Part shown: positions 13,778-64,000 of the stretch, one piece after another
Position numbering within the stretch: the stretch's first letter is position 1
Layout: every line of letters starts with the position of its first letter
Assembly: GCA_963695435.1 (NCBI GenBank)
Contig: OY968788.1
Location: forward strand, 54,781-118,780
DNA length: 64,000 bases
DNA from: an uncultured bacterium
Lineage (GTDB): Bacteria > Patescibacteriota > Kazan-3B-28
Direction: 5' to 3'
Notes under the pieces: model-generated
Databases searched by the model: none
What the model was told of the DNA's origin: nothing
Seen by the model: the letters and a program-made list of their open reading frames with translations, nothing else
Position numbers and translations under genes: made by a program

Positions 13778-16147
13778 GTGGCAGAAGAAAAATACGATCA
13801 CAAACTGATTGAGCCGAAATGGCAAAAATACTGGGCAGATAACCAGATTTTTAAGGCGATTGATGGGGACAAAAAAGCGAAGTATTACGCTTTGGATATG
13901 TTTGCCTACCCATCAGGAGATGGGTTGCACACAGGGCACCCTAGAAGCTACACGGCGACTGATATTTTTGCGCGCTACTATCGGATGAAGGGCTACAATG
14001 TGATGCGGCCAATTGGGTGGGATGCGTTTGGGCTCCCTGCGGAAAACTATGCGATCAAAAAAGGTGTACATCCAAGTAAGACTACTGCGGACAATATTGC
14101 GAACTTTACTCGACAGGTAAAGTCGTTTGGTTTTGCCTACGATTGGGGCAGGGAGGTGAATACTGCCGATCCAAATTATTACAAATGGACGCAGTGGGTT
14201 TTTAAAGTTTTGTATGACAACGGATTGGCTTATCAAAAAGAGGCGTATGCCAACTGGTGTCCAAAAGACCAAACAGTACTTGCCAACGAGCAGGTGGTGA
14301 ATGGTTGTTGCGATCGGTGCGGGGCACAAGTGGAACAAAAGAAACTGAAGCAGTGGTTTTTCAAAATCACAGATTTCGCTGAAGAGCTTTTGGCAGGACT
14401 GGATAAAATCGACTGGCCTGAATCCACAAAGACGGGACAGCGAAACTGGATTGGAAAAAGTGAAGGAGCGGAAATCGCATTCGCGATTAGCGGGTCAGCG
14501 GGTCAGCAGGTCAGCGGGTCAGAAATTAGAGTGTTTACGACTAGGCCGGATACATTGTTTGGGGCGACTTACTTAGTATTGGCGCCGGAGCATGAATTAG
14601 TAGAGAAGCTCACGACTGCGGAGCAGAAAAAGGCGGTTGAAAAATATGTAGCCGACACCAAGTTAAAGACCCATTTGGATAGAACGATGGCGAAGGATAA
14701 GACAGGCGTGTTTACGGGCAGTTTTGCTATCAACCCGGCGACTAAAAAAGAAATTCCAATTTGGATAGCCGATTATGTTCTGACCGATTATGGCACGGGT
14801 GCGATTATGGCGGTGCCGGCGCATGATGAACGAGATTTTGATTTTGCTAAAGAGTTTAAATTGCCAGTGGTGCAGGTTATTCAATCGGACGAGAAACTTT
14901 ACACGGGGGATGGTTCATTAATGAATTCGGGTGAGTTTGACGGACAAGACTCTAAAACGGCTGGACCAAAGATGGCGAAAAAGTTTGGAGGGGAAATAAC
15001 CGTTCAATATAAATTGCACGATTGGCTGATTTCTCGTCAGCGTTATTGGGGAGCTCCGATTCCAATTGTTTATTCTGCAGACGGGGAGACTCAAAGTGTA
15101 GCGGTGGAAGATTTGCCGGTGATATTGCCCAGTGATGTTGATTTCAAACCAACGGGCGAATCGCCATTGGCGAAGTCTAAAACTTTCCAAACGGGGGTTG
15201 AAGAAAAATACGGCAAGGGCGCCAAAAGGGAACTAGATACAATGGATACTTTCGTTTGTTCGTCATGGTATTATTTGCGTTACTGCGACTCCAAAAACGC
15301 TCAAGAATTTGCGGGTAAAAAATCCTTGAAATACTGGATGCCGGTGGATTTGTATATTGGTGGGGCAGAGCATACCAATGGGCATTTGTTGTATGCAAGA
15401 TTTATTACCAAGGTTTTGCACAAACTCGGTTATTTGGATTTTGATGAGCCGTTTTTGAAACTGCGTCATCAAGGATTGGTGCTTGGAAGTGACGGGGAAA
15501 AAATGAGCAAATCCAGAGGAAATGTGATTAATCCTGACGATTTGATTGAACAATATGGCGCTGACACAGTGCGGATGTATGAAATGTTTATGGGGCCGTT
15601 TGACCAGCCCATTGCTTGGGATACTAATGGGGTGGTGGGAGTACGGAAGTTTTTGGACCGAGTGTACCGAATTATTAGTGAGAGAGCAGGTATAAAAGGA
15701 AAGCAAAATGACAATATCCATGGATTGATAAAGAAGGTGACCGAGGATATCGGGGTGATGAAGTTTAATACGGTAGTGAGTAGCTTTATGGAATTTACCA
15801 ATGAGGTTTCCAAAGACGATAGTAGTAATTGGCTCCCAGACTTTGTGAAACTTTTGAGCCCGTTTGCTCCGCACTTGGCAGAAGAATTATGGCAAGAAGT
15901 TTTAGGTCAGAAGGGTAGTGTCTCAGAAGCTTCATGGCCGGAATTTGATGAAGCCAAAACGAAAGCAAAAACAGTCACTATTGCGGTGCAAGAAAAAGGA
16001 AAACTGCGTGGAACGGTCGAGATGCCAGCAGGGGCGAGTGAGACTGATGTTTTGGTAGAAGTTAATAAAAATGAAAAACTGGCAGGCATCACCAAGGCTA
16101 GTTCCAAACATATTTTTGTGAAGGATAGGATTATTAATTTTATTTAG
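13778..16147 (+). CDS. leuS: Leucine--tRNA ligase
   Basis: It has a GTG start. The sequence PYPSGDGLHTGHPRSYTATD carries the HIGH-region motif HTGH, and KMSKS is present. The editing domain is short. Confidence 0.9.
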   Translation: MAEEKYDHKLIEPKWQKYWADNQIFKAIDGDKKAKYYALDMFAYPSGDGLHTGHPRSYTATDIFARYYRMKGYNVMRPIGWDAFGLPAENYAIKKGVHPSKTTADNIANFTRQVKSFGFAYDWGREVNTADPNYYKWTQWVFKVLYDNGLAYQKEAYANWCPKDQTVLANEQVVNGCCDRCGAQVEQKKLKQWFFKITDFAEELLAGLDKIDWPESTKTGQRNWIGKSEGAEIAFAISGSAGQQVSGSEIRVFTTRPDTLFGATYLVLAPEHELVEKLTTAEQKKAVEKYVADTKLKTHLDRTMAKDKTGVFTGSFAINPATKKEIPIWIADYVLTDYGTGAIMAVPAHDERDFDFAKEFKLPVVQVIQSDEKLYTGDGSLMNSGEFDGQDSKTAGPKMAKKFGGEITVQYKLHDWLISRQRYWGAPIPIVYSADGETQSVAVEDLPVILPSDVDFKPTGESPLAKSKTFQTGVEEKYGKGAKRELDTMDTFVCSSWYYLRYCDSKNAQEFAGKKSLKYWMPVDLYIGGAEHTNGHLLYARFITKVLHKLGYLDFDEPFLKLRHQGLVLGSDGEKMSKSRGNVINPDDLIEQYGADTVRMYEMFMGPFDQPIAWDTNGVVGVRKFLDRVYRIISERAGIKGKQNDNIHGLIKKVTEDIGVMKFNTVVSSFMEFTNEVSKDDSSNWLPDFVKLLSPFAPHLAEELWQEVLGQKGSVSEASWPEFDEAKTKAKTVTIAVQEKGKLRGTVEMPAGASETDVLVEVNKNEKLAGITKASSKHIFVKDRIINFI

Positions 16148-28838: not shown

Positions 28839-28902
28839 GTTTTTCTTTTTCTGTCATGCTTGAGCGAAGCGAAGCATCTATAATGATGTTTCTTTTTGTT
28901 TT

Positions 28903-29105
28903 CAAGGGTCTCCGCGACCCTTGTATCGCGGTTACTTTGTCTTGTCAAAGTAACCAAACCGTCCCGCCAGTCGCTTTCGCTATTCATCTAATAAAATTAG
29001 CTTTCTGACTTACGGCGAACTCCTCCTTGTCAGTCGTCAAACAGCGCCTTCGTCAGCGCTAATTTTATTGATTCATTACACTCAAGCTCCAATGGCGGAT
29101 GGGAG
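28903..29105 (+). repeat. Intergenic structured repeat element, copy 1 of 3. Two leader hairpins are followed by a core of about 140 nt closed by long-range pairing, ending ctcaagctccaatggcgg.
   Basis: The core 28963-29105 is about 92% identical to 60727-60860. The hairpins 28903-28960 match 34963-35020. Confidence 0.7.
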
Positions 29106-29282
29106 ACAAAAAACAAGTGGATTGTTTCGAATCCGCTATATAGAGAAGGTATGTGCTGCAACTAGTGGGCGACTAGCCGCCTATTTGTCCACCATTAAGT
29201 ATCATTTTGGCTCCTGTAATTCATAGAACAGTATAAGATACTGACATAATAACATATGTCTAAGGGCGAAAAGTGAGCTGAC

Positions 29283-34962: not shown

Positions 34963-35190
34963 CAAGGGTCTGCGCGACCCTTGTACCGCGGTTACTTTGT
35001 CTTGTCAAAGCGACGGAAACCGCTTGCCCACGTCGTCGGGCTTATTCATTGGATAAATTACCTTACCGCTTAAAGGGCAAACTCACCCGATAGCCATCGG
35101 GTTCAAACATGCCCCCGCGACGGCAATTTATCTCAATTCAGGACAGCCCTCCTCCTATGGCATGAAGACAAAAGCTCCAATGGTGGGGAG
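34963..35190 (+). repeat. Intergenic structured repeat element, copy 2 of 3 (divergent copy)
   Basis: The leader hairpins ggtctgcgcgaccc and ggttactttgtcttgtcaaag match copy 1. In the core, the closing stem arms are replaced by different but still complementary sequences (ggataaattacc / ggcaatttatct). The 3' end is aagctccaatggtgggg. Confidence 0.55.
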
Positions 35191-35244
35191 GAGAAAACAG
35201 GTATAATATGGTCAGTTAGGGGGCGGTATAGTTTTAACATTCGC

Positions 35245-38280: not shown

Positions 38281-39957
38281 ATGGCGAGCAAAAAAACTGC
38301 TCCAAAAAAGAAAGCAGCCCCTCGCGTGGCGGGTAAACGGGCGGTGGCTCGGAAACGGGTGACCGTCGGGAAAAAGCCGGCGAAAAGTAAGCAGGTCAGC
38401 AGGTCAGCAGGTAAGCGGGCAAGTAATAAAAAAGTAGTGAAAAAAATGGCAAAGAAGAAACCGATTAGAAAACCGGCTCCAAAAAAGACCGCCCCTAAAC
38501 GGGCAGGTAAAAAACGGGTGATTAAGAAAAAGCCGGCAAAAAAATTGGTAAAGAAAGTATCAAAGAAAAAGCCGGCAAAAAAGATAGTAAAGAAGAGACC
38601 GATAAAAAAGGCTGTTAAGAAGAAACCAGCGAAGAAACTGAAGCCGAAGAAGTCGGTAAAGAAACCGTTGAAGAAGCTAGCAAAGAAAGTTGCTCCTAAG
38701 AAGGTAAGTAAAAAACGCAAATCAGAAGCAGAAGAATTGCTCGGAGAGCCAAGACCAGAAGAACCAAAACTCAAGATATTTGAGATTGAGGATGAAGACG
38801 AAATTGCCAAAAAAAGGAAACGCAAAGAATCTGGTATTGGTAAGCTCCCGGGGCCGGTAGCGGATTTGGTATCCGCCGGTAAGGCAAAAGGCTTTATCAC
38901 TCAACAAGAACTAGAGCAGGCGGTCCCGAATGTGGAAAAGCAAATCGAAATGCTTGATTTGTTGTTCCAGATTTTGATGGAAGAAGGAATTGAGGTGGTA
39001 GATGTTCGGGACGATCTGATCTGGGCATTGGCCGGGGACAGTAAGCTAAGCAAGAAAACTGAAGCCACTAAGAAAAAAATGCGGAACAAGCTGGATGTGA
39101 ATATCGATCCGCACTTGTTGGAAGATGACATCAGTGATGACTCGGTAAGGATGTATCTGAAGGAAATCGGACAGGTGCCGTTGCTTCGAGCCGAAGAAGA
39201 AGTCGCGTTGGCAAAACGAGTGGAAATGGGTGATGTGCTGGCGTCCAAACAGTTGGCGGAAGCAAACTTGCGGTTGGTTGTATCGATTGCCAAAAAATAT
39301 ATTGGCCGAGGATTGTCGCTTTTGGATTTGATTCAGGAAGGCAACATCGGTTTGATGAAAGCGGTGGAGAAATTTGACTGGCGACGAGGATTCAAATTCT
39401 CAACTTACGCGACTTGGTGGATTCGTCAGGCCATTACTCGCGCCATTGCCGACCAAGCTCGAACAATTCGTATCCCGGTGCACATGGTAGAAACGATGAA
39501 CAGGCTTTCTCGTACTCAACGGCAATTGGTGCAAGAGCTTGGGCGTGAGCCGACTCCAGAAGAAATTGCCAATGAAATGGAATTGGAAGTTGAAAAAGTT
39601 AACCACATTCTAAAGATTTCGCAGGAGACTGTATCTTTGGAAAAGTCGGTCGGTGACGAAGATGACTCTTTGCTTGGTGACTTTATTCAAGATGAAGATA
39701 GTCTGACGCCGGAAGAAGCTTCGGCTTACGAACTTCTGAAAGGTGATGTGGGCGGAGTACTTGATTTGTTGTCGCCAAGAGAGCAAAAGATTCTGAAGTT
39801 GCGATTTGGTCTTGGCGGCGAGTGGGCACACACGCTGGAGGAAGTAGGTAAAGAATTCGGAGTCACTCGTGAGCGTATTCGTCAGATCGAAGCTAAGGCA
39901 CTAATGAAATTGCGCAAGAGCAAAGACAGTAAGAAGTTGAAAGATTATTTGAAGTAA
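38281..39957 (+). CDS. rpoD: RNA polymerase sigma factor RpoD (sigma70) with a roughly 170-aa lysine-rich N-terminal extension of histone-H1-like AKKPAKK repeats
   Basis: The region 2 motif is [30 protein letters not shown]. The region 4 motif is [15 protein letters not shown]. The dnaG-rpoD order is conserved. Confidence 0.9.
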
Positions 39958-43296: not shown

Positions 43297-43359
43297 CTAT
43301 GGGGTTTATCGCTAAAGAGGCGGTGGCTTTTGTGTGATAATAGGGACGAAAGGAGTTAT

Positions 43360-43581
43360 ATGAAGAAAATATTTCTTTGGGGCGGGTTAGTTGGCTTTAT
43401 CGTCTTTTTCCTGTTGGGATTTTTGGCGGGGGCAACTAATGGTCCTGATAATCAGCCGGTTTTTGCGTTAGTCTATGGTACTAACCAGGTTCTCTGGGCA
43501 TTCCTTGGTCTTGTTTTCGCAATTCTTTTCATCATCGGTTTAGTGATGGTGATTGTTGGTGCGATAAAGAGACGCAAATAG
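43360..43581 (+). CDS. Small (73 aa) two-transmembrane membrane protein
   Basis: AAGGAG precedes the ATG. The start MKKIFLWGGLVGF and the end IIGLVMVIVGAIKRRK are recognisable. It is a paralog of the next ORF. Confidence 0.55.
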   Translation: MKKIFLWGGLVGFIVFFLLGFLAGATNGPDNQPVFALVYGTNQVLWAFLGLVFAILFIIGLVMVIVGAIKRRK

Positions 43582-43637
43582 TAGGGGATAGATAATTCTC
43601 TTAGATATTAGAATGACTGTTTGGTAAAAGGATTTTT

Positions 43638-43853
43638 ATGAAAAGAACATTTCTTTGGGGTGGGTTGATTGGTTTTGCCGTATTTTTTCTGATAGGACTT
43701 CTAACCAGCACATCAAACAATGGACCGTCCATATTACCTCTCACTTGTGATTCAAAAGGTTTGATATGGGTTCTCTTTGCTCTTGTTGGCGCTGTATTTT
43801 TCCTGATTGGCTTGGTGATGGTGATTGTTGATGTGATAAAAAGACGCAAGTAG
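43638..43853 (+). CDS. Small (71 aa) two-transmembrane membrane protein (paralog)
   Basis: MKRTFLWGGLIGFAVFFLIGLL...LIGLVMVIVDVIKRRK is about 60% identical to 43360..43581. Confidence 0.55.
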   Translation: MKRTFLWGGLIGFAVFFLIGLLTSTSNNGPSILPLTCDSKGLIWVLFALVGAVFFLIGLVMVIVDVIKRRK

Positions 43854-46347: not shown

Positions 46348-46423
46348 GGGCCCGTAACTCAGTGGTTAGAGTAGTCCCCTCATAAGGGATTAGTCCTTGG
46401 TTCGAATCCAAGCGGGCCCACCA
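46348..46423 (+). tRNA. tRNA with CAT anticodon, probably tRNA-Ile2 (lysidine tRNA) or an elongator Met
   Basis: The acceptor stem gggcccg/cgggccc is fully paired. The anticodon loop is cuCAUaa. The D-arm resembles E. coli tRNA-Ile2. CCA is encoded. Confidence 0.75.
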
Positions 46424-46556
46424 CGGCGTCGAAATGGCTTCGCTCGACGCGCGAGCAAAACAGGTTTGCTCGGCTAATGAAGCTCAGCATTTCTCCTTTC
46501 AAAATTACAAACACTTCGTTGGTTTACAATTTTGGTTAGAGACAAAGACTTAGTAT
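46424..46556 (+). repeat. tRNA-trailer repeat element
   Basis: It begins cgtcgaaatggcttc as at 1284. It shares gctcggctaAtg and cagcatttctcctttc with that copy and carries the variant motif ttggtttacaattttggttag. Confidence 0.65.
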
Positions 46557-47042: not shown

Positions 47043-47118
47043 TGGTTGCGGGGGTGAGATTCGAACTCACGACCTTCAGGTTATGAGCCTGACGAGCTAG
47101 CCACTGCTCTACCCCGCG
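47043..47118 (-). tRNA. Initiator tRNA-fMet (anticodon CAT)
   Basis: A C1xA72 mismatch is present (5' cgcgggg, 3' ccccgca + a + cca). The anticodon arm ucaggcuCAUaaccuga is E. coli tRNAfMet-like. Confidence 0.8.
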
Positions 47119-47152
47119 AGCCAATGTTAGCAATTCAGCTCATATCTGTCCA

Positions 47153-47217
47153 CCCCGTAGAAGAAATTTAATCGCGCTTTGCGCACCAGTCGAAGACATT
47201 AAATTTTCTCTACGGGG
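47153..47217. repeat. Conserved long palindromic hairpin (20-bp arms ccccgtagaagaaatttaat / attaaattttctctacgggg), copy 1
   Basis: The same arms, with a different loop, occur at 63603-63679. On the minus strand it immediately precedes a candidate promoter for the initiator tRNA (TGGACA, 17 nt, TAACAT). Confidence 0.6.
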
Positions 47218-47227
47218 TCCACCCCTA

Positions 47228-47653
47228 TCAAGCGACTTCGTGCAAACCGAGTATCAATCTCCACCATTTTTCGGGGTTGGTTGGTTCCTTTGGAACGGTT
47301 TTTGTTTGGTCTTGGATGTTACCTTCTGTAAATCTTTCAATGTCTTCGTTGGGAATTATCAGCACAGTTTCTCCAACTTTCTGGTAGTTCAGTTTTTCCC
47401 TTGCTTCCTTATCTTTGAAAGCATCTGTTTGGCGGTAGGCGATTAGATTTTGCAGATATTTGTTGTGTAATTTGAGGTCAGCGTTTTCCTGTCTTAGTTG
47501 AGTCAGCTCTTTATCTATTTGATAATTTTGCCAAATTGCTTGAATGGTTGAAACTACCATATATACCAAAAGGATTGCCCCCATGGTCATCAATAGTCTC
47601 GCACGCAATTCCTTGCCCTGCGGTAACTTAATTTTTCCTGATAGCTTGTTCAT
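47228..47653 (-). CDS. ftsB: FtsB/DivIC-like septum formation initiator (short N-terminus, one transmembrane segment, coiled coil)
   Basis: LRARLLMTMGAILLVYMVV is the transmembrane segment. A Q/L-rich coiled coil follows (LTQLRQENADLKL). The start is placed at MNKLSGK; the ORF track's TTG start would overlap the upstream tRNA. Confidence 0.6.
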   Translation of the reverse strand: MNKLSGKIKLPQGKELRARLLMTMGAILLVYMVVSTIQAIWQNYQIDKELTQLRQENADLKLHNKYLQNLIAYRQTDAFKDKEAREKLNYQKVGETVLIIPNEDIERFTEGNIQDQTKTVPKEPTNPEKWWRLILGLHEVA

Positions 47654-52396: not shown

Positions 52397-52594
52397 AGCA
52401 ATGGAAGAAGAAGAGTGAGGAATTTTTGGACAAACGAAAAGGGCTACCGAGTGGTAGCCCTGCGGAATTTAACCGCTACTATCCAGTAAGGAAGGGGGTC
52501 CTTACAAGAAGCAAAGGTTCAGAACTGACCATAGGGTCAGAGTTTCGCCAAACTTTGAAGTCTGGCTGAATAATAGAAAAGAAAAAAGGACAAA

Positions 52595-52683
52595 GTACCC
52601 GGCGAGACTCGAACCCGCTTCCTTCTGGATCCCTAAGTATCTGGGTGTAGCCAGACGCTCTAGCCCAATTGAGCTACGGGTAC
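52595..52683 (-). tRNA. Atypical tRNA-like gene with unresolved isotype. The acceptor, D and T arms are canonical, the anticodon-loop candidate is CUACACC and there is a 21-nt extra region. No CCA is encoded.
   Basis: The reverse complement is gtacccg-ta-gctc-aattgggcta-gagc-g-tctgg-ctacacc-ccaga-tacttagggatccagaaggaa-gcggg-ttcgagt-ctcgc-cgggtac. Confidence 0.45.
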
Positions 52684-55182: not shown

Positions 55183-55222
55183 TTAGCACTGTATTGACAG
55201 GAGTGCTAATGGGGCATAGAAT
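55183..55222 (+). promoter_or_regulatory. CIRCE operator (TTAGCACTG-N9-GAGTGCTAA) overlapping a sigma70 promoter (TTGACA, 17 nt, TAGAAT)
   Basis: The CIRCE inverted repeat is at 55183-55209. The -35 box TTGACA lies inside the CIRCE spacer. The -10 box TAGAAT is at 55217-55222. The element sits immediately upstream of hrcA. Confidence 0.75.
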
Positions 55223-60650: not shown

Positions 60651-60666
60651 TTTTTTATTTTCTTTT

Positions 60667-60860
60667 TAAGCGCTCGCGCCGCGCTTAGACTGGCGGTGTC
60701 TTTTCTAGAAAAGACACCCAAAAGTCCCCGCCAGTCGCTTTCGCTATTCATCTAATAAAATTAACTTTCTGACTTACAGCGAACTCGCTACGCTCAAACA
60801 GCGCCTTCGTCAGCGCTAATTTTATTGATTCAGTACACTCAAGCTCCAATGGCGGATAGA
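60667..60860 (+). repeat. Intergenic structured repeat element, copy 3 of 3
   Basis: The core 60727-60860 is about 92% identical to 28963-29105. It is preceded by two different hairpins (aagcgctcgcgccgcgctt; ggtgtcttttctagaaaagacacc). Confidence 0.7.
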
Positions 60861-60953
60861 GAAATAATAAAAAATTAGTAAGCTTTACTTTTGGGATTTT
60901 TTCTGGCATGCTGTGGTCAGTTAATTTCCGCCTTAAAAAGCTATTATTAATCT

Positions 60954-61930: not shown

Positions 61931-63589
61931 ATGTTTAGTAGAAGAACTTATCGTTTTTACGAAATTATTCCAGGTGTCATTACCTGGTCTATTTTACTGT
62001 TGCCGTTTATTTTGGCATGGGTTTGGCCGGTGGGAGTGGCATATTTCATTATTGTTTTTGATACTTACTGGCTTACCAAAGCGCTTTTGATGGGAGGCCA
62101 TTTGGTTTCCGGCTATATGCACATGAAGCGAGTAATGCGGATTGATTGGCTGACCAGGTTGCATCAGTCGGAAGATTTGGGCGGGTTGTCTGATTCGCTG
62201 ATGCGTCAATATTTGTTGGCACGGGGTTTTCAGGCTCGGAAATTGAAAGAGGAGTGGGAACAAGTAGAAAAAATCAAAGGTTTCCCAGATCAGCAAAAAC
62301 GGTGGCAAGAGGTTACCCACGCGGTAATTTACACTATTTACAAAGAAAGCTACGAAGTGGTGGAGGCATCGGTTCGTTCTTGTCTTGAGAGTAATTATCC
62401 CAAAGATAAAATTTTGGTTGTGCTTGGGATGGAAGAAAGGGCGGGGGCAGGAGCGTTGGAGGTGGCGCGAAGGGTGCAGGAAAAATTTGCGGGTGTATTT
62501 ATGGATATGCTCATTTCGGTTCATCCCGACGGGATTGTGGGTGAATTGAAGGCTAAGGGAGCTAACGCGTATCATGCTGGCAAAATGCTGCAGGGGTATA
62601 TAGATGAGCGTGGTATCAAGTATGACAATGTAATAGTTTCCTGTTTTGACTCGGACACGGTTGTGAGTAAACAATATTTTGCCAATGTTACTTACAACTA
62701 CATTTTGATTGCCGAACGAGTATTTCGCAGTTATCAGCCGATTCCTTTGTTCAATAACAACATTTGGGATGTGCCGGCGCTGAACAGGCTGGTGGCATTC
62801 GGCTCGTCCTACTGGCAGATGATTGAATCGACTCGTCCTTATCGCTTGGTGAATTTCTCTTCTCAAGCAATGAGTTTGAAAACATTGGTGGACATCGATT
62901 TTTGGGATAGAAGTGTTGTTTCGGAAGACTCCAAACAGTTTTATCGCGCATATTACCAATACAACGGGAACCACAAAGTTATTCCTATTTTCACGCCGGT
63001 TTCGATGGACGCTGTCTTAGGAAAAACTTATTGGCAAACACTAAAGGCGCAGTACATCCAGAAGCGTCGGTGGGCGTGGGGGATTGAGCATTTTCCTTAT
63101 GTGATGGAAAAGTTTTTCAGCACTCGCCACCAAATGACTTTGTACCAACGCATCATTCATCCGTTCAGAATTTTTGAAGGGCACATTTCTTGGGCGACAT
63201 CATCTTTGTTGATTATGATGGGCGGGTGGTTGCCGATTTTGGTGAACATTGATTTTCGAAGCAGTATCTTGGCGTATCATTTGCCAGTATTGGCGAGAGA
63301 CCTTTTGAGCATTACTTGGGTAGGGATTATTATTTCCACGATCATATCTTTCCAACTGTTGCCCCCGAGACCGGCTAAATACGGCGGGGTGCGGGTGCTG
63401 GAGATGATTCTGCAATGGATTTTGGTGCCTGTCTCGGGAATTATTTTTGGCTCTATCCCGGCGATTGATGCCGAAACTCGGCTGATGTTCGGTAAATACC
63501 TGGGCTTCCATGTGACGGAAAAAGAGCGCAAGACAGAGGTCCCTTCGTCGGTGATAGACAAGCCGACTGTCTCCCAGGTCTCCGTCTGA
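61931..63589 (+). CDS. Family 2 glycosyltransferase, membrane-embedded (cellulose-synthase-like), second copy in the window
   Basis: N-terminal transmembrane helices are present. The GT-A core has FDSDT (DxD). The QxxRW motif is QKRRWAWG. C-terminal transmembrane helices are present. Confidence 0.7.
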   Translation: MFSRRTYRFYEIIPGVITWSILLLPFILAWVWPVGVAYFIIVFDTYWLTKALLMGGHLVSGYMHMKRVMRIDWLTRLHQSEDLGGLSDSLMRQYLLARGFQARKLKEEWEQVEKIKGFPDQQKRWQEVTHAVIYTIYKESYEVVEASVRSCLESNYPKDKILVVLGMEERAGAGALEVARRVQEKFAGVFMDMLISVHPDGIVGELKAKGANAYHAGKMLQGYIDERGIKYDNVIVSCFDSDTVVSKQYFANVTYNYILIAERVFRSYQPIPLFNNNIWDVPALNRLVAFGSSYWQMIESTRPYRLVNFSSQAMSLKTLVDIDFWDRSVVSEDSKQFYRAYYQYNGNHKVIPIFTPVSMDAVLGKTYWQTLKAQYIQKRRWAWGIEHFPYVMEKFFSTRHQMTLYQRIIHPFRIFEGHISWATSSLLIMMGGWLPILVNIDFRSSILAYHLPVLARDLLSITWVGIIISTIISFQLLPPRPAKYGGVRVLEMILQWILVPVSGIIFGSIPAIDAETRLMFGKYLGFHVTEKERKTEVPSSVIDKPTVSQVSV

Positions 63590-63602
63590 TAGCCCCTATT
63601 GA

Positions 63603-63679
63603 CCCCGTAGAAGAAATTTCATTGGGCTTTCGCCTTTATATCCCTCTTGAGGGGGATATATGAAATTTTCTCTACGGGG
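63603..63679. repeat. Conserved long palindromic hairpin (arms ccccgtagaagaaatttcat / atgaaattttctctacgggg), copy 2, abutting the rRNA promoter -35
   Basis: It has the same 20-bp arms as 47153-47217. The loop contains the second palindrome ccctcttgaggggg. Confidence 0.6.
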
Positions 63680-63708
63680 TTGACAGGGGGCAGGGTGGGG
63701 CTTAGAAT
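63680..63708 (+). promoter_or_regulatory. rRNA operon promoter: TTGACA, 17 nt, TAGAAT
   Basis: The sequence ttgacagggggcagggtggggcttagaat lies about 200 nt upstream of the 16S 5' end. Confidence 0.6.
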
Positions 63709-63910
63709 ACTCACTAGAGTTGCATTAATTTTAAAGCTAGGTCGAGGCTATAAAAGCTAAAGGGATTCCGGTTGCCGGAGTCTATCTTTTATTTACCCCT
63801 CCTAGGGCTTTGAGGCAGCTCCTAATCAGTACTTTTACAACCAGAGAGTACTTAGAGAGCAAATAGTGAATTCAAGAATAAAATTCCAGAAGTGGAATAA
63901 AAATATACTT

Positions 63911-64000
63911 TTTTGAGAGTTTGATCCTAGCTCAGGATTAACGCTGGCGGCATGCCTAACACATGCAAGTCGAATGGCCCGCAAGGGTACCATGGCGAAC
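63911..64000 (+). rRNA. rrs: 16S ribosomal RNA, 5' end (partial; continues beyond the window)
   Basis: The sequence tttgagagtttgatcctagctcaggattaacgctggcggcatgcctaacacatgcaagtcgaa matches the universal 16S 5' region (the 27F primer site). Confidence 0.9.

Follow-up and report, generated by a model that had tools for sequence, protein, structure and literature searches.

Paired hairpins beside stable-RNA promoters very probably represent a MITE-type transposon of Patescibacteria that inserts into promoter hexamers

The 64-kb stretch of DNA analysed here (referred to as the window) carries two hairpins adjacent to stable-RNA promoters, which are very probably copies of a non-coding, non-autonomous MITE-type transposon of Patescibacteria with a specificity for insertion into promoter hexamers. 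The copies and their flanks indicate integration by a staggered cut of 4 bp or sometimes 5 bp, and the sites used are in their overwhelming majority the first bases of promoter hexamers. If the element has an insulator, terminator or promoter effect, this would be secondary. The family is previously undescribed; a search of the full-text literature retrieved no account of MITEs from Patescibacteria or Saccharibacteria. The CPR/Patescibacteria, most of which have not been cultured, possess tiny genomes, and knowledge of their mobile DNA and promoter biology is scant.

Exact matches to the arm CCCCGTAGAAGAAATTT are located at 47153 and 63603, and its partners follow on the minus strand at 47201-47217 and 63663-63679 with two mismatches. 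A search of the 64-kb window with the 17-nt arm gave five matches at up to three mismatches compared with 0.19 expected by chance, and none of 100 shuffled sequences gave five. Both hairpins (65 and 77 bp, with arms of 17–20 nt) are far more stable than their shuffled counterparts (z from -3.8 to -9.8). Arm search, folding and profile searches thus agree with the original prediction of two hairpins, each beside a stable-RNA promoter. Neither the nhmmer profile nor the covariance model detected a third copy in the window.

Copy 1 (47153-47217, 65 bp) has its canonical orientation on the minus strand, scoring 57.9 bits there and 54.9 bits on the plus strand, and reads CCCCGTAGAGAAAATTTAAT - GTCttcgGAC - GCGCaaaGCGC - ATTAAATTTCTTCTACGGGG on the minus strand. 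It is enclosed by a target-site duplication TGGA, visible as TCCA at 47149-47152 and 47218-47221 on the plus strand; the upstream copy (47218-47221) stays on the DivIC side, and the downstream copy (47149-47152) provides bases 1–4 of the -35 box TGGACA. The corresponding promoter, TGGACA-17-(TGc)TAACAT (47124-47152, minus strand), had been proposed to end 5 nt before an fMet tRNA and was recovered by the promoter scan in this position. The tRNA-Met (CAT) gene (47043-47118, minus strand) is of the initiator type, as C1 lies opposite A72 according to the sequence. The spacing of 5 nt between the TAACAT box and the mature tRNA 5′ end (47119-47129, minus strand) recurs in the related loci L157 and L159 and implies that the 5′ leader is very short or absent. 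On its other side, copy 1 is preceded by a DivIC/FtsB-like gene (47228-47653, minus strand), the stop codon TGA of which (47230-47228) is located 10 nt upstream of the element; PF04977 (DivIC) is present in the L157/L159 orthologue.

Copy 2 (63603-63679, plus strand, 77 bp, 65.5 bits) consists of CCCCGTAGAAGAAATTTCAT - GGGCtttcGCC - ATATCCCTCttgaGGGGGATAT - ATGAAATTTTCTCTACGGGG and is flanked by the duplication TTGA at 63599-63602 and 63680-63683, the latter being bases 1–4 of the -35 box of the rRNA promoter TTGACA-17-TAGAAT (63680-63708, plus strand) found by the promoter scan. The 16S rRNA 5′ end (63909-64000, plus strand) follows with the promoter ca. 200 nt upstream, and the gene runs past the end of the window. 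On the upstream side, a family-2 glycosyltransferase-like gene (61931-63589, plus strand; homologues with PF13632) ends with its stop codon 13 nt before the element. The 3′ arm abuts TTGACA directly, and the single nucleotide formerly placed between them does not exist. The arms, described as perfect, are indeed identical between the two copies; their self-complementarity is imperfect, with GA facing AG at positions 10–11, which creates a tandem mismatch of G.T plus A.C. The 4-bp direct repeats TGGA and TTGA around the copies were absent from the earlier description.

The surroundings of the two copies would at first sight fit a host regulatory palindrome, namely an operator, insulator or terminator upstream of stable-RNA promoters that is recognised by a factor or keeps read-through away from the promoter. 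Each copy follows the stop codon of a gene read in the same direction and precedes a stable-RNA promoter, and the conservation of the stems with compensatory changes (see below) as well as six family members found 8–34 nt upstream of tRNA 5′ ends would fit such a function. A role as intrinsic (Rho-independent) terminators, one of the functions suggested before, can be dismissed for the window copies because the hairpins are followed by GGGGTTGACAGG and GGGGTGGACAGA (GGGG TTGACA and GGGG TGGACA) and not by a T-run. Of the element, the terminator scan picked up nothing beyond a 5-bp inner hairpin in copy 1.

Against a host palindrome stand primarily the corresponding loci of close relatives, which have kept the promoters but lack the element. 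The copy 1 site is empty in L157/L158, the closest relatives found (TilS 90% identical), and in the more distant L159; it reads taggggTGGAcagatatgag...TAACATtggctCGCGGGG with a single TGGA and no element, and the L157/L158 sequence ...taggggTGGAcagatatgagttgaattgcTAACATtggctCGCGGGG equals that of the window minus the 65-bp element and the second TGGA. L157 and L159 thus show the tRNA-fMet promoter in its element-free form. Just 6 nt separate the DivIC stop codon from the -35 box in the empty alleles, with no intervening terminator. Likewise, the copy 2 site of L150 (glycosyltransferase 82% identical) is empty and reads ctaTTGAcagggggc...TAGAAT, with one TTGA (...tatctaTTGAcagggggcatggggtgttcTAGAATactcactagag...), no element and the rRNA promoter preserved. 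L152 (87%) carries a different or decayed element at the identical TTGA of the rRNA promoter. Of the other glycosyltransferase relatives, L153, L155 and L183 have no rRNA downstream and are hence uninformative for this site, and the L182 sequence stops within an apparent variant arm. Three more pairs of occupied and empty sites were found among the fetched loci (L111, L092 and L011). The occurrence of the same promoters in relatives lacking the element implies that the promoters are older than the element and independent of it. Both window copies can be taken, from this comparison of alleles, to have inserted into existing, conserved promoters after the split from the close relatives. In addition, the rRNA operon of relatives contains LAGLIDADG homing-endonuclease ORFs (L150 5311-5763 and 6526-7311; L152 6023-6769), which suggests that the rRNA genes downstream of the copy 2 promoter are intron-bearing in the window's relatives.

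The host palindrome is further contradicted by a strong TTGACA-17-TAGAAT promoter at position 55194 of the window that manages without an element, by the copies of the TATAA class, which already have a T-run terminator upstream, and by the family as a whole, in which most copies adjoin protein-coding genes and 4–5-bp flanking duplications of variable sequence are the rule. Altogether, a palindrome dedicated to factor binding or to the insulation of stable-RNA promoters, as originally envisaged, appears highly unlikely in view of the hairpin-free promoters of the close relatives and the target-site duplications, and the transposon remains the preferred interpretation.

The distribution of the family was assessed by two scans. 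With a two-arm pattern, a scan covering a single genome for each species (GTDB) identified 29 loci in 15 assemblies; the record titles of 14 of them name Patescibacteria lineages (Saccharibacteria, Nealsonbacteria, Parcubacteria or “Patescibacteria group”), and the remaining one is merely termed “bacterium”. Every genome match with a taxonomic label belongs to the Patescibacteria (CPR). The best protein matches place the organism of the window itself in the Kazan group of the CPR. The scan of metagenome contigs with unspecified termini yielded at least 120 loci. In total, more than 140 further copies are available, with several copies per genome and up to five contigs per MAG. A working set of 110 non-redundant copies with adequate flanks was used for the subsequent analysis. 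The copies are 61–87 bp long and thus offer no room for a protein-coding gene. An abutting direct repeat of at least 4 bp is present in 93 of the 110 copies (75 of 4 bp and 17 of 5 bp), compared with ca. 14 of 110 in a control with randomly re-paired flanks; these and the following counts are higher than the true number of independent insertions, as the loci were selected by the element and some represent the same insertion in related strains. The shortness and lack of coding capacity, the TIRs, the target-site duplication, the empty sites and the dispersed copies together characterize a MITE.

Promoter adjacency, noted for the window copies, extends to a strong promoter association across the family; the proposed restriction to stable-RNA promoters does not, since most of the other copies are found beside promoters of protein genes. 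A tRNA within 250 nt accompanies only 11 of the 110 copies, which argues against an element specific to stable-RNA genes. Four of the six copies immediately upstream of tRNA genes occupy tRNA-Leu loci, where the left flanks look orthologous and the duplications differ (TAAA, TAAG and TGAA), a situation that argues for repeated independent insertions.

The duplicated sequences define the target. The logo of the 4-bp sites consists of T-W-R-A between a preceding g and a following c, and that of the 5-bp sites of TA(T/A)AA followed by T. With the canonical orientation defined as small hairpin first, TTGA was recorded 25 times and its reverse complement TCAA 10 times, TAAA(A) 21 times and TTTA twice, TATAA nine times and TATA four times in forward orientation; other duplicated sequences are scattered. 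About one third of the copies are located exactly at a TTGACA-16/18-TAnnnT promoter and about one quarter at TATAAT or TAAAAT boxes. The TTGA duplications are followed by CA in 25 of 35 cases (background 4.5%) and by a -10 box at a distance of 16–18 nt in 33 of 35 cases (background 12%). Among intergenic TTGAC sites, as delimited by crude ORF-based masks at loci chosen for the presence of the element, 31 of 33 occupied sites and 113 of 246 unoccupied ones have a -10 box (p = 7e-9). The offset between the element end and the -35 box of the nearest promoter facing outwards has a sharp maximum at 0 (32 of 53). This base-precise positioning is not accounted for by a model in which any intergenic spot is acceptable as long as the promoter is spared. 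Two sequence motifs were additionally noticed in the flanks. The motif TGTGGAAAAGnCGC directly precedes a TTGACC -35 box in L087, L040, L044, L026 and L023, with the element at its outer edge and duplications of CACA, TGTG or CACG, and it could represent an upstream promoter element or a factor site conserved in those CPR genomes. The motif GGTGTGAGGGCAAG occurs just upstream of the insertion sites in the left flanks of L022, L044, L071 and L135.

At the second type of site, comprising 24 copies, the flank opens with the -10 hexamer itself (TATAAT, TAAAAT or TAGAAT). The native -35 region of these sites, 16–18 nt upstream, scores 3.0/6, and the TTGTCA or TTGTTA of the element, placed exactly 16 nt upstream of the flank, scores 4.5/6; the opposite element end contains CAGTCA. 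In most cases an ATG follows 5–9 nt past the -10 box, suggesting leaderless genes. The orientation of the element is biased, 23:9 at -35-type sites (p = 0.02) and 31:4 at -10/TAAA-type sites (p = 3e-6), which fits an element-borne TTGTCA. At the -10-type sites the element may donate the -35 box.

Based on these data we propose the following scenario. A trans-acting transposase, probably of the DDE type, would mobilise the element. Both the enzyme and its chemistry are deduced from the duplications alone, because no transposase partner was found. Insertion between TTGA and CA of a -35 box duplicates TTGA and leaves an intact -35 box linked to its -10 box on one side; insertion between TATAA and T or between TAAA and AT leaves an intact -10 box on one side, with the TTGTCA of the element 16 nt upstream. 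The promoters, kept intact in sequence on one side, would presumably stay active after insertion. The DNA upstream of -36 would be replaced by AAATTTCTTCTACGGGG and the palindrome, and any native UP element would be lost. As a further consequence, read-through out of the gene upstream may be blocked by the palindrome, or that gene may gain a more stable 3′ end. The arms would most simply be conserved for a transposase, and as the inner arm contains TTGAC, the preferred target word, we speculate that one DNA-binding surface may read both.

A more far-reaching version of this scenario, which we put forward as a tentative and rather unlikely possibility, assumes transposition actively directed to sigma-70-type promoters by an enzyme that reads either the hexamers or DNA that is bound by RNA polymerase/sigma or melted. 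The element, inserted in a preferred orientation at the first base of the -35 or -10 box, would then constitute a portable promoter module that spreads among CPR lineages, acting as -35 donor and replacing the upstream region, and its fold and arm mismatch would reflect a single-stranded intermediate, undescribed for elements that generate duplications.

The consensus of the element is CCCCGTAGAGAAAATTTGAC-TGCCttcGGCA-nTT-AGGTTTTCtnnaGAAAACCT-TGTCAAATTTCTTCTACGGGG, the arms being CCCCGTAGAG.../...CTCTACGGGG in short form, and the TIRs of ca. 20 bp are imperfect (CCCCGTAGA-GA-AAATTTGAC ... GTCAAATTT-CT-TCTACGGGG). The CCCC/GGGG termini are conserved, exactly so in 66 copies, although the second scan left them free, and their variants are often compensatory (CCCG..CGGG and CCCA..TGGG). 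Eight stem pairs are invariant and the arm sequence is nearly so across distant lineages; estimates of arm conservation are, however, biased because the pattern scans required exact arm cores. The GA/AG mismatch is kept in 108 of the 110 copies. It is also retained in a second subfamily (CCCCGTAGAGAAATTTCGAC...), which shares the CCCCGTAGA termini and is represented at L047:12442-12590, L142:~770-938, L062:10353-10433, L012:6760-6843 and L040:4106-4183. Its inner arms are AAATTTCGAC/GTCGAAATT, its interiors reach ca. 110–130 nt and its duplications 3–4 bp (TATG, CATA and ATG).

The interior folds into two small hairpins, and modelling of the single strand predicts a covarying three-way junction. 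On its own, the interior is more stable than shuffled sequences (mean z = -2.2), folds into a hairpin pair in 70 of the 97 copies and frequently contains cTTCGg-like loops. A covariance model was built, 94 copies were re-aligned to it, and pairing partners slid by 1–3 columns served as control. Standard pairs fill 96.8% of the cells compared with 36–55% for slid partners; since the alignment was fitted to the model, this percentage is flattering and the slid-partner control was relied on instead. Changes on both sides were found in 20 of 30 pairs, including all 12 interior pairs, and the number of doubly changed cells is 296 compared with 10–39 in the slid controls. A plain MAFFT alignment also displays such exchanges, as GAC/GTC to AAC/GTT, TGCC/GGCA to TACC/GGTA and GGTTTTC/GAAAACC to GTGTTTTG/CAAAACAC. 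RNAalifold applied to this alignment detected the outer stem only, because the interior hairpins are out of register. The compensatory changes across the ca. 94 copies bear out the former assumption that the stem is under selection.

Such a conserved fold would also be expected of a structured small RNA or ssDNA unit, for instance a 3′-end stabiliser, a processing site or a retro-/ssDNA-mobilised module, the arms of which are kept for folding and not for binding of a transposase. The three-way junction with compensatory changes in each interior pair, the stability and loops of the two hairpins, the tandem G.T/A.C mismatch shared by nearly all copies and by the second subfamily, and the orientation bias relative to the flanking transcription are in line with this idea. 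It is nevertheless very unlikely as a complete explanation, as the arm sequence is nearly invariant beyond what pairing demands, about one quarter of the promoter-adjacent copies are reversed, and the fixed 4–5-bp duplication is typical of the cuts of a transposase or integrase. Moreover, Rfam 15 contains no family matching at the gathering score, and below this threshold only generic hairpin noise (miRNA precursors) appeared. For the MITE-type transposon favoured here, the interior covariation and the arm mismatch are the main unexplained features of the family; they are not needed in a simple model of TIRs plus transposase and hint at a single-stranded stage (DNA or RNA) or a host-level function.

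An autonomous element or transposase with the same termini was found neither in ca. 1.3 Mb of fetched loci nor in plasmids, phages and viral contigs. All fetched loci were searched for solo or distant arm pairs with up to four mismatches. The only pair spaced by 2.5 kb (L015, positions 4785 and 7319) lies inside dnaN-like and PBP-like ORFs and was discarded as a chance match. Inverted repeats seeded by 13-mers and 0.6–3.5 kb apart in the fetched loci comprised only separate MITE copies, tRNAs and low-complexity sequence. Plasmids and phages matched the consensus by BLAST only partially and at chance level. Among viral contigs, scanning with a single arm produced 20 matches, a number that we judge compatible with chance for a degenerate 17-nt pattern, and none of them had a second arm.

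A different mode of mobilisation would apply to a REP/REPIN-like element moved by a RAYT (HUH Y1 transposase) via a single-stranded hairpin intermediate. REP sequences are headed by the tetranucleotide GTAG, and the arms of the present element each contain GTAG/CTAC, its long hairpin resembles a doublet, and its conserved fold suggests that a single-stranded form matters. The GTAG is, however, placed within the stem and not 5′ of it; transposition of the HUH/IS200-IS605 type proceeds without target duplication, whereas 4–5-bp duplications prevail here; and no RAYT-like gene was noticed in a non-systematic inspection of the loci. We therefore consider this origin extremely improbable and retain the interpretation as a MITE generated by staggered cutting.

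Further repeats and structured features were observed in the window. An intergenic sequence of ca. 230 nt occurs three times on the plus strand (28889-29109, 34963-35197 and 60653-60866), with 73–98% identity in parts, a shared predicted multi-hairpin fold, compensatory changes in 16 of 54 pairs among the three copies and no Rfam match at E<=1; it is a candidate for an unannotated structured RNA or a second repeat family. The tRNA genes for Ser, Asn, Met and fMet have homologous 3′ trailers of ca. 80–130 nt (1276-1357 versus 46419-46500), with inverted copies at 46489-46541/46924-46976 and 315-448/1270-1404 and short repeats at 1410, 40259 and 46518. These trailers include a hairpin of an A-tract and a T-tract (AAAATCACAAAC...GTTTGTGATTTT), which looks like a shared bidirectional terminator module. 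A 90-nt tRNA-like gene at 52594-52683 (minus strand) has an odd anticodon loop (“ac”) and no ARAGORN assignment, and it reaches 51 bits with the Rfam tRNA model. Short tandem arrays of 8-nt units (AGCGGGTC / AGCAGGTC) are present at 14481-14542 and 38382-38435, and a small membrane-protein-like ORF with its ribosome-binding region is duplicated in tandem at 43349-43581 and 43627-43853 (ca. 78% identity).

An element that marks hexamers with single-base precision would offer a free genome-wide annotation of real CPR promoters, including those of leaderless genes and near-leaderless tRNAs. The pairs of occupied and empty sites represent natural alleles with and without the element for tests of promoter architecture. 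For annotation, such hairpins should not be called terminators or operators. If the targeting proves to be active and not a product of selection, the element would be a bacterial counterpart of the promoter-tethered integration of eukaryotic retroelements. Ty3, Ty1 and Tf1 are LTR retrotransposons that are tethered by transcription factors and thereby target promoters or transcription start sites. The insertions described here are likewise tightly clustered at initiation signals, including positions just upstream of tRNA genes, yet the likeness concerns the insertion position alone, whereas those elements are tethered LTR retrotransposons.

Among bacterial elements, the family recalls known MITEs such as the Correia elements (CREE) of Neisseria, RUP of Streptococcus and ERIC of enterobacteria, which can generate new promoters and RNA 3′ ends or alter existing ones. 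They share the short, non-coding format, the TIRs, the target-site duplication, numerous intergenic copies and long hairpins. The present element differs from them in sequence and phylum (CPR), in a duplication of 4–5 bp with T-W-R-A instead of TA, in its length of only 61–87 bp, in the exact insertion into -35 and -10 hexamers, in the covarying three-way junction and conserved GA/AG arm asymmetry, and in having no known cognate IS. With REP, BIME and REPIN sequences it has in common the nature of an extragenic palindrome with an internal GTAG, the position at gene ends and a conserved fold, but REPs are not known to produce the target duplication so clearly seen here or to be specific for promoter hexamers.

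Hybrid promoters are formed by insertion sequences whose terminal repeats carry a -35 box facing outwards, as known for IS1, IS2, IS26/IS257 and ISEcp1. The TTGTCA positioned 16 nt from the flank in the element end and the -10 box at the start of the flank in 24 copies correspond to this principle, although the carrier here is a MITE of 75 bp, the -10 box itself is the target, and many genes and genomes are involved instead of selected resistance-gene cases. For the IS1380 family (ISEcp1-like), ISfinder gives 4–5-bp duplications and ends starting with CC. The AT-rich 4–5-bp duplications, the CC(CC) termini and the outward promoter activity, predicted in the case of our element, resemble this family; the vicinity of the copies revealed no IS1380-type transposase, and an affinity to IS1380, suggested by duplication length and CC termini, is considered as a lead only. 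Beyond these parallels, the host range (CPR for every labelled genome match), the 4–5-bp T-W-R-A target, the base-precise insertion into hexamers, the three-way junction and the arm mismatch set the element apart.
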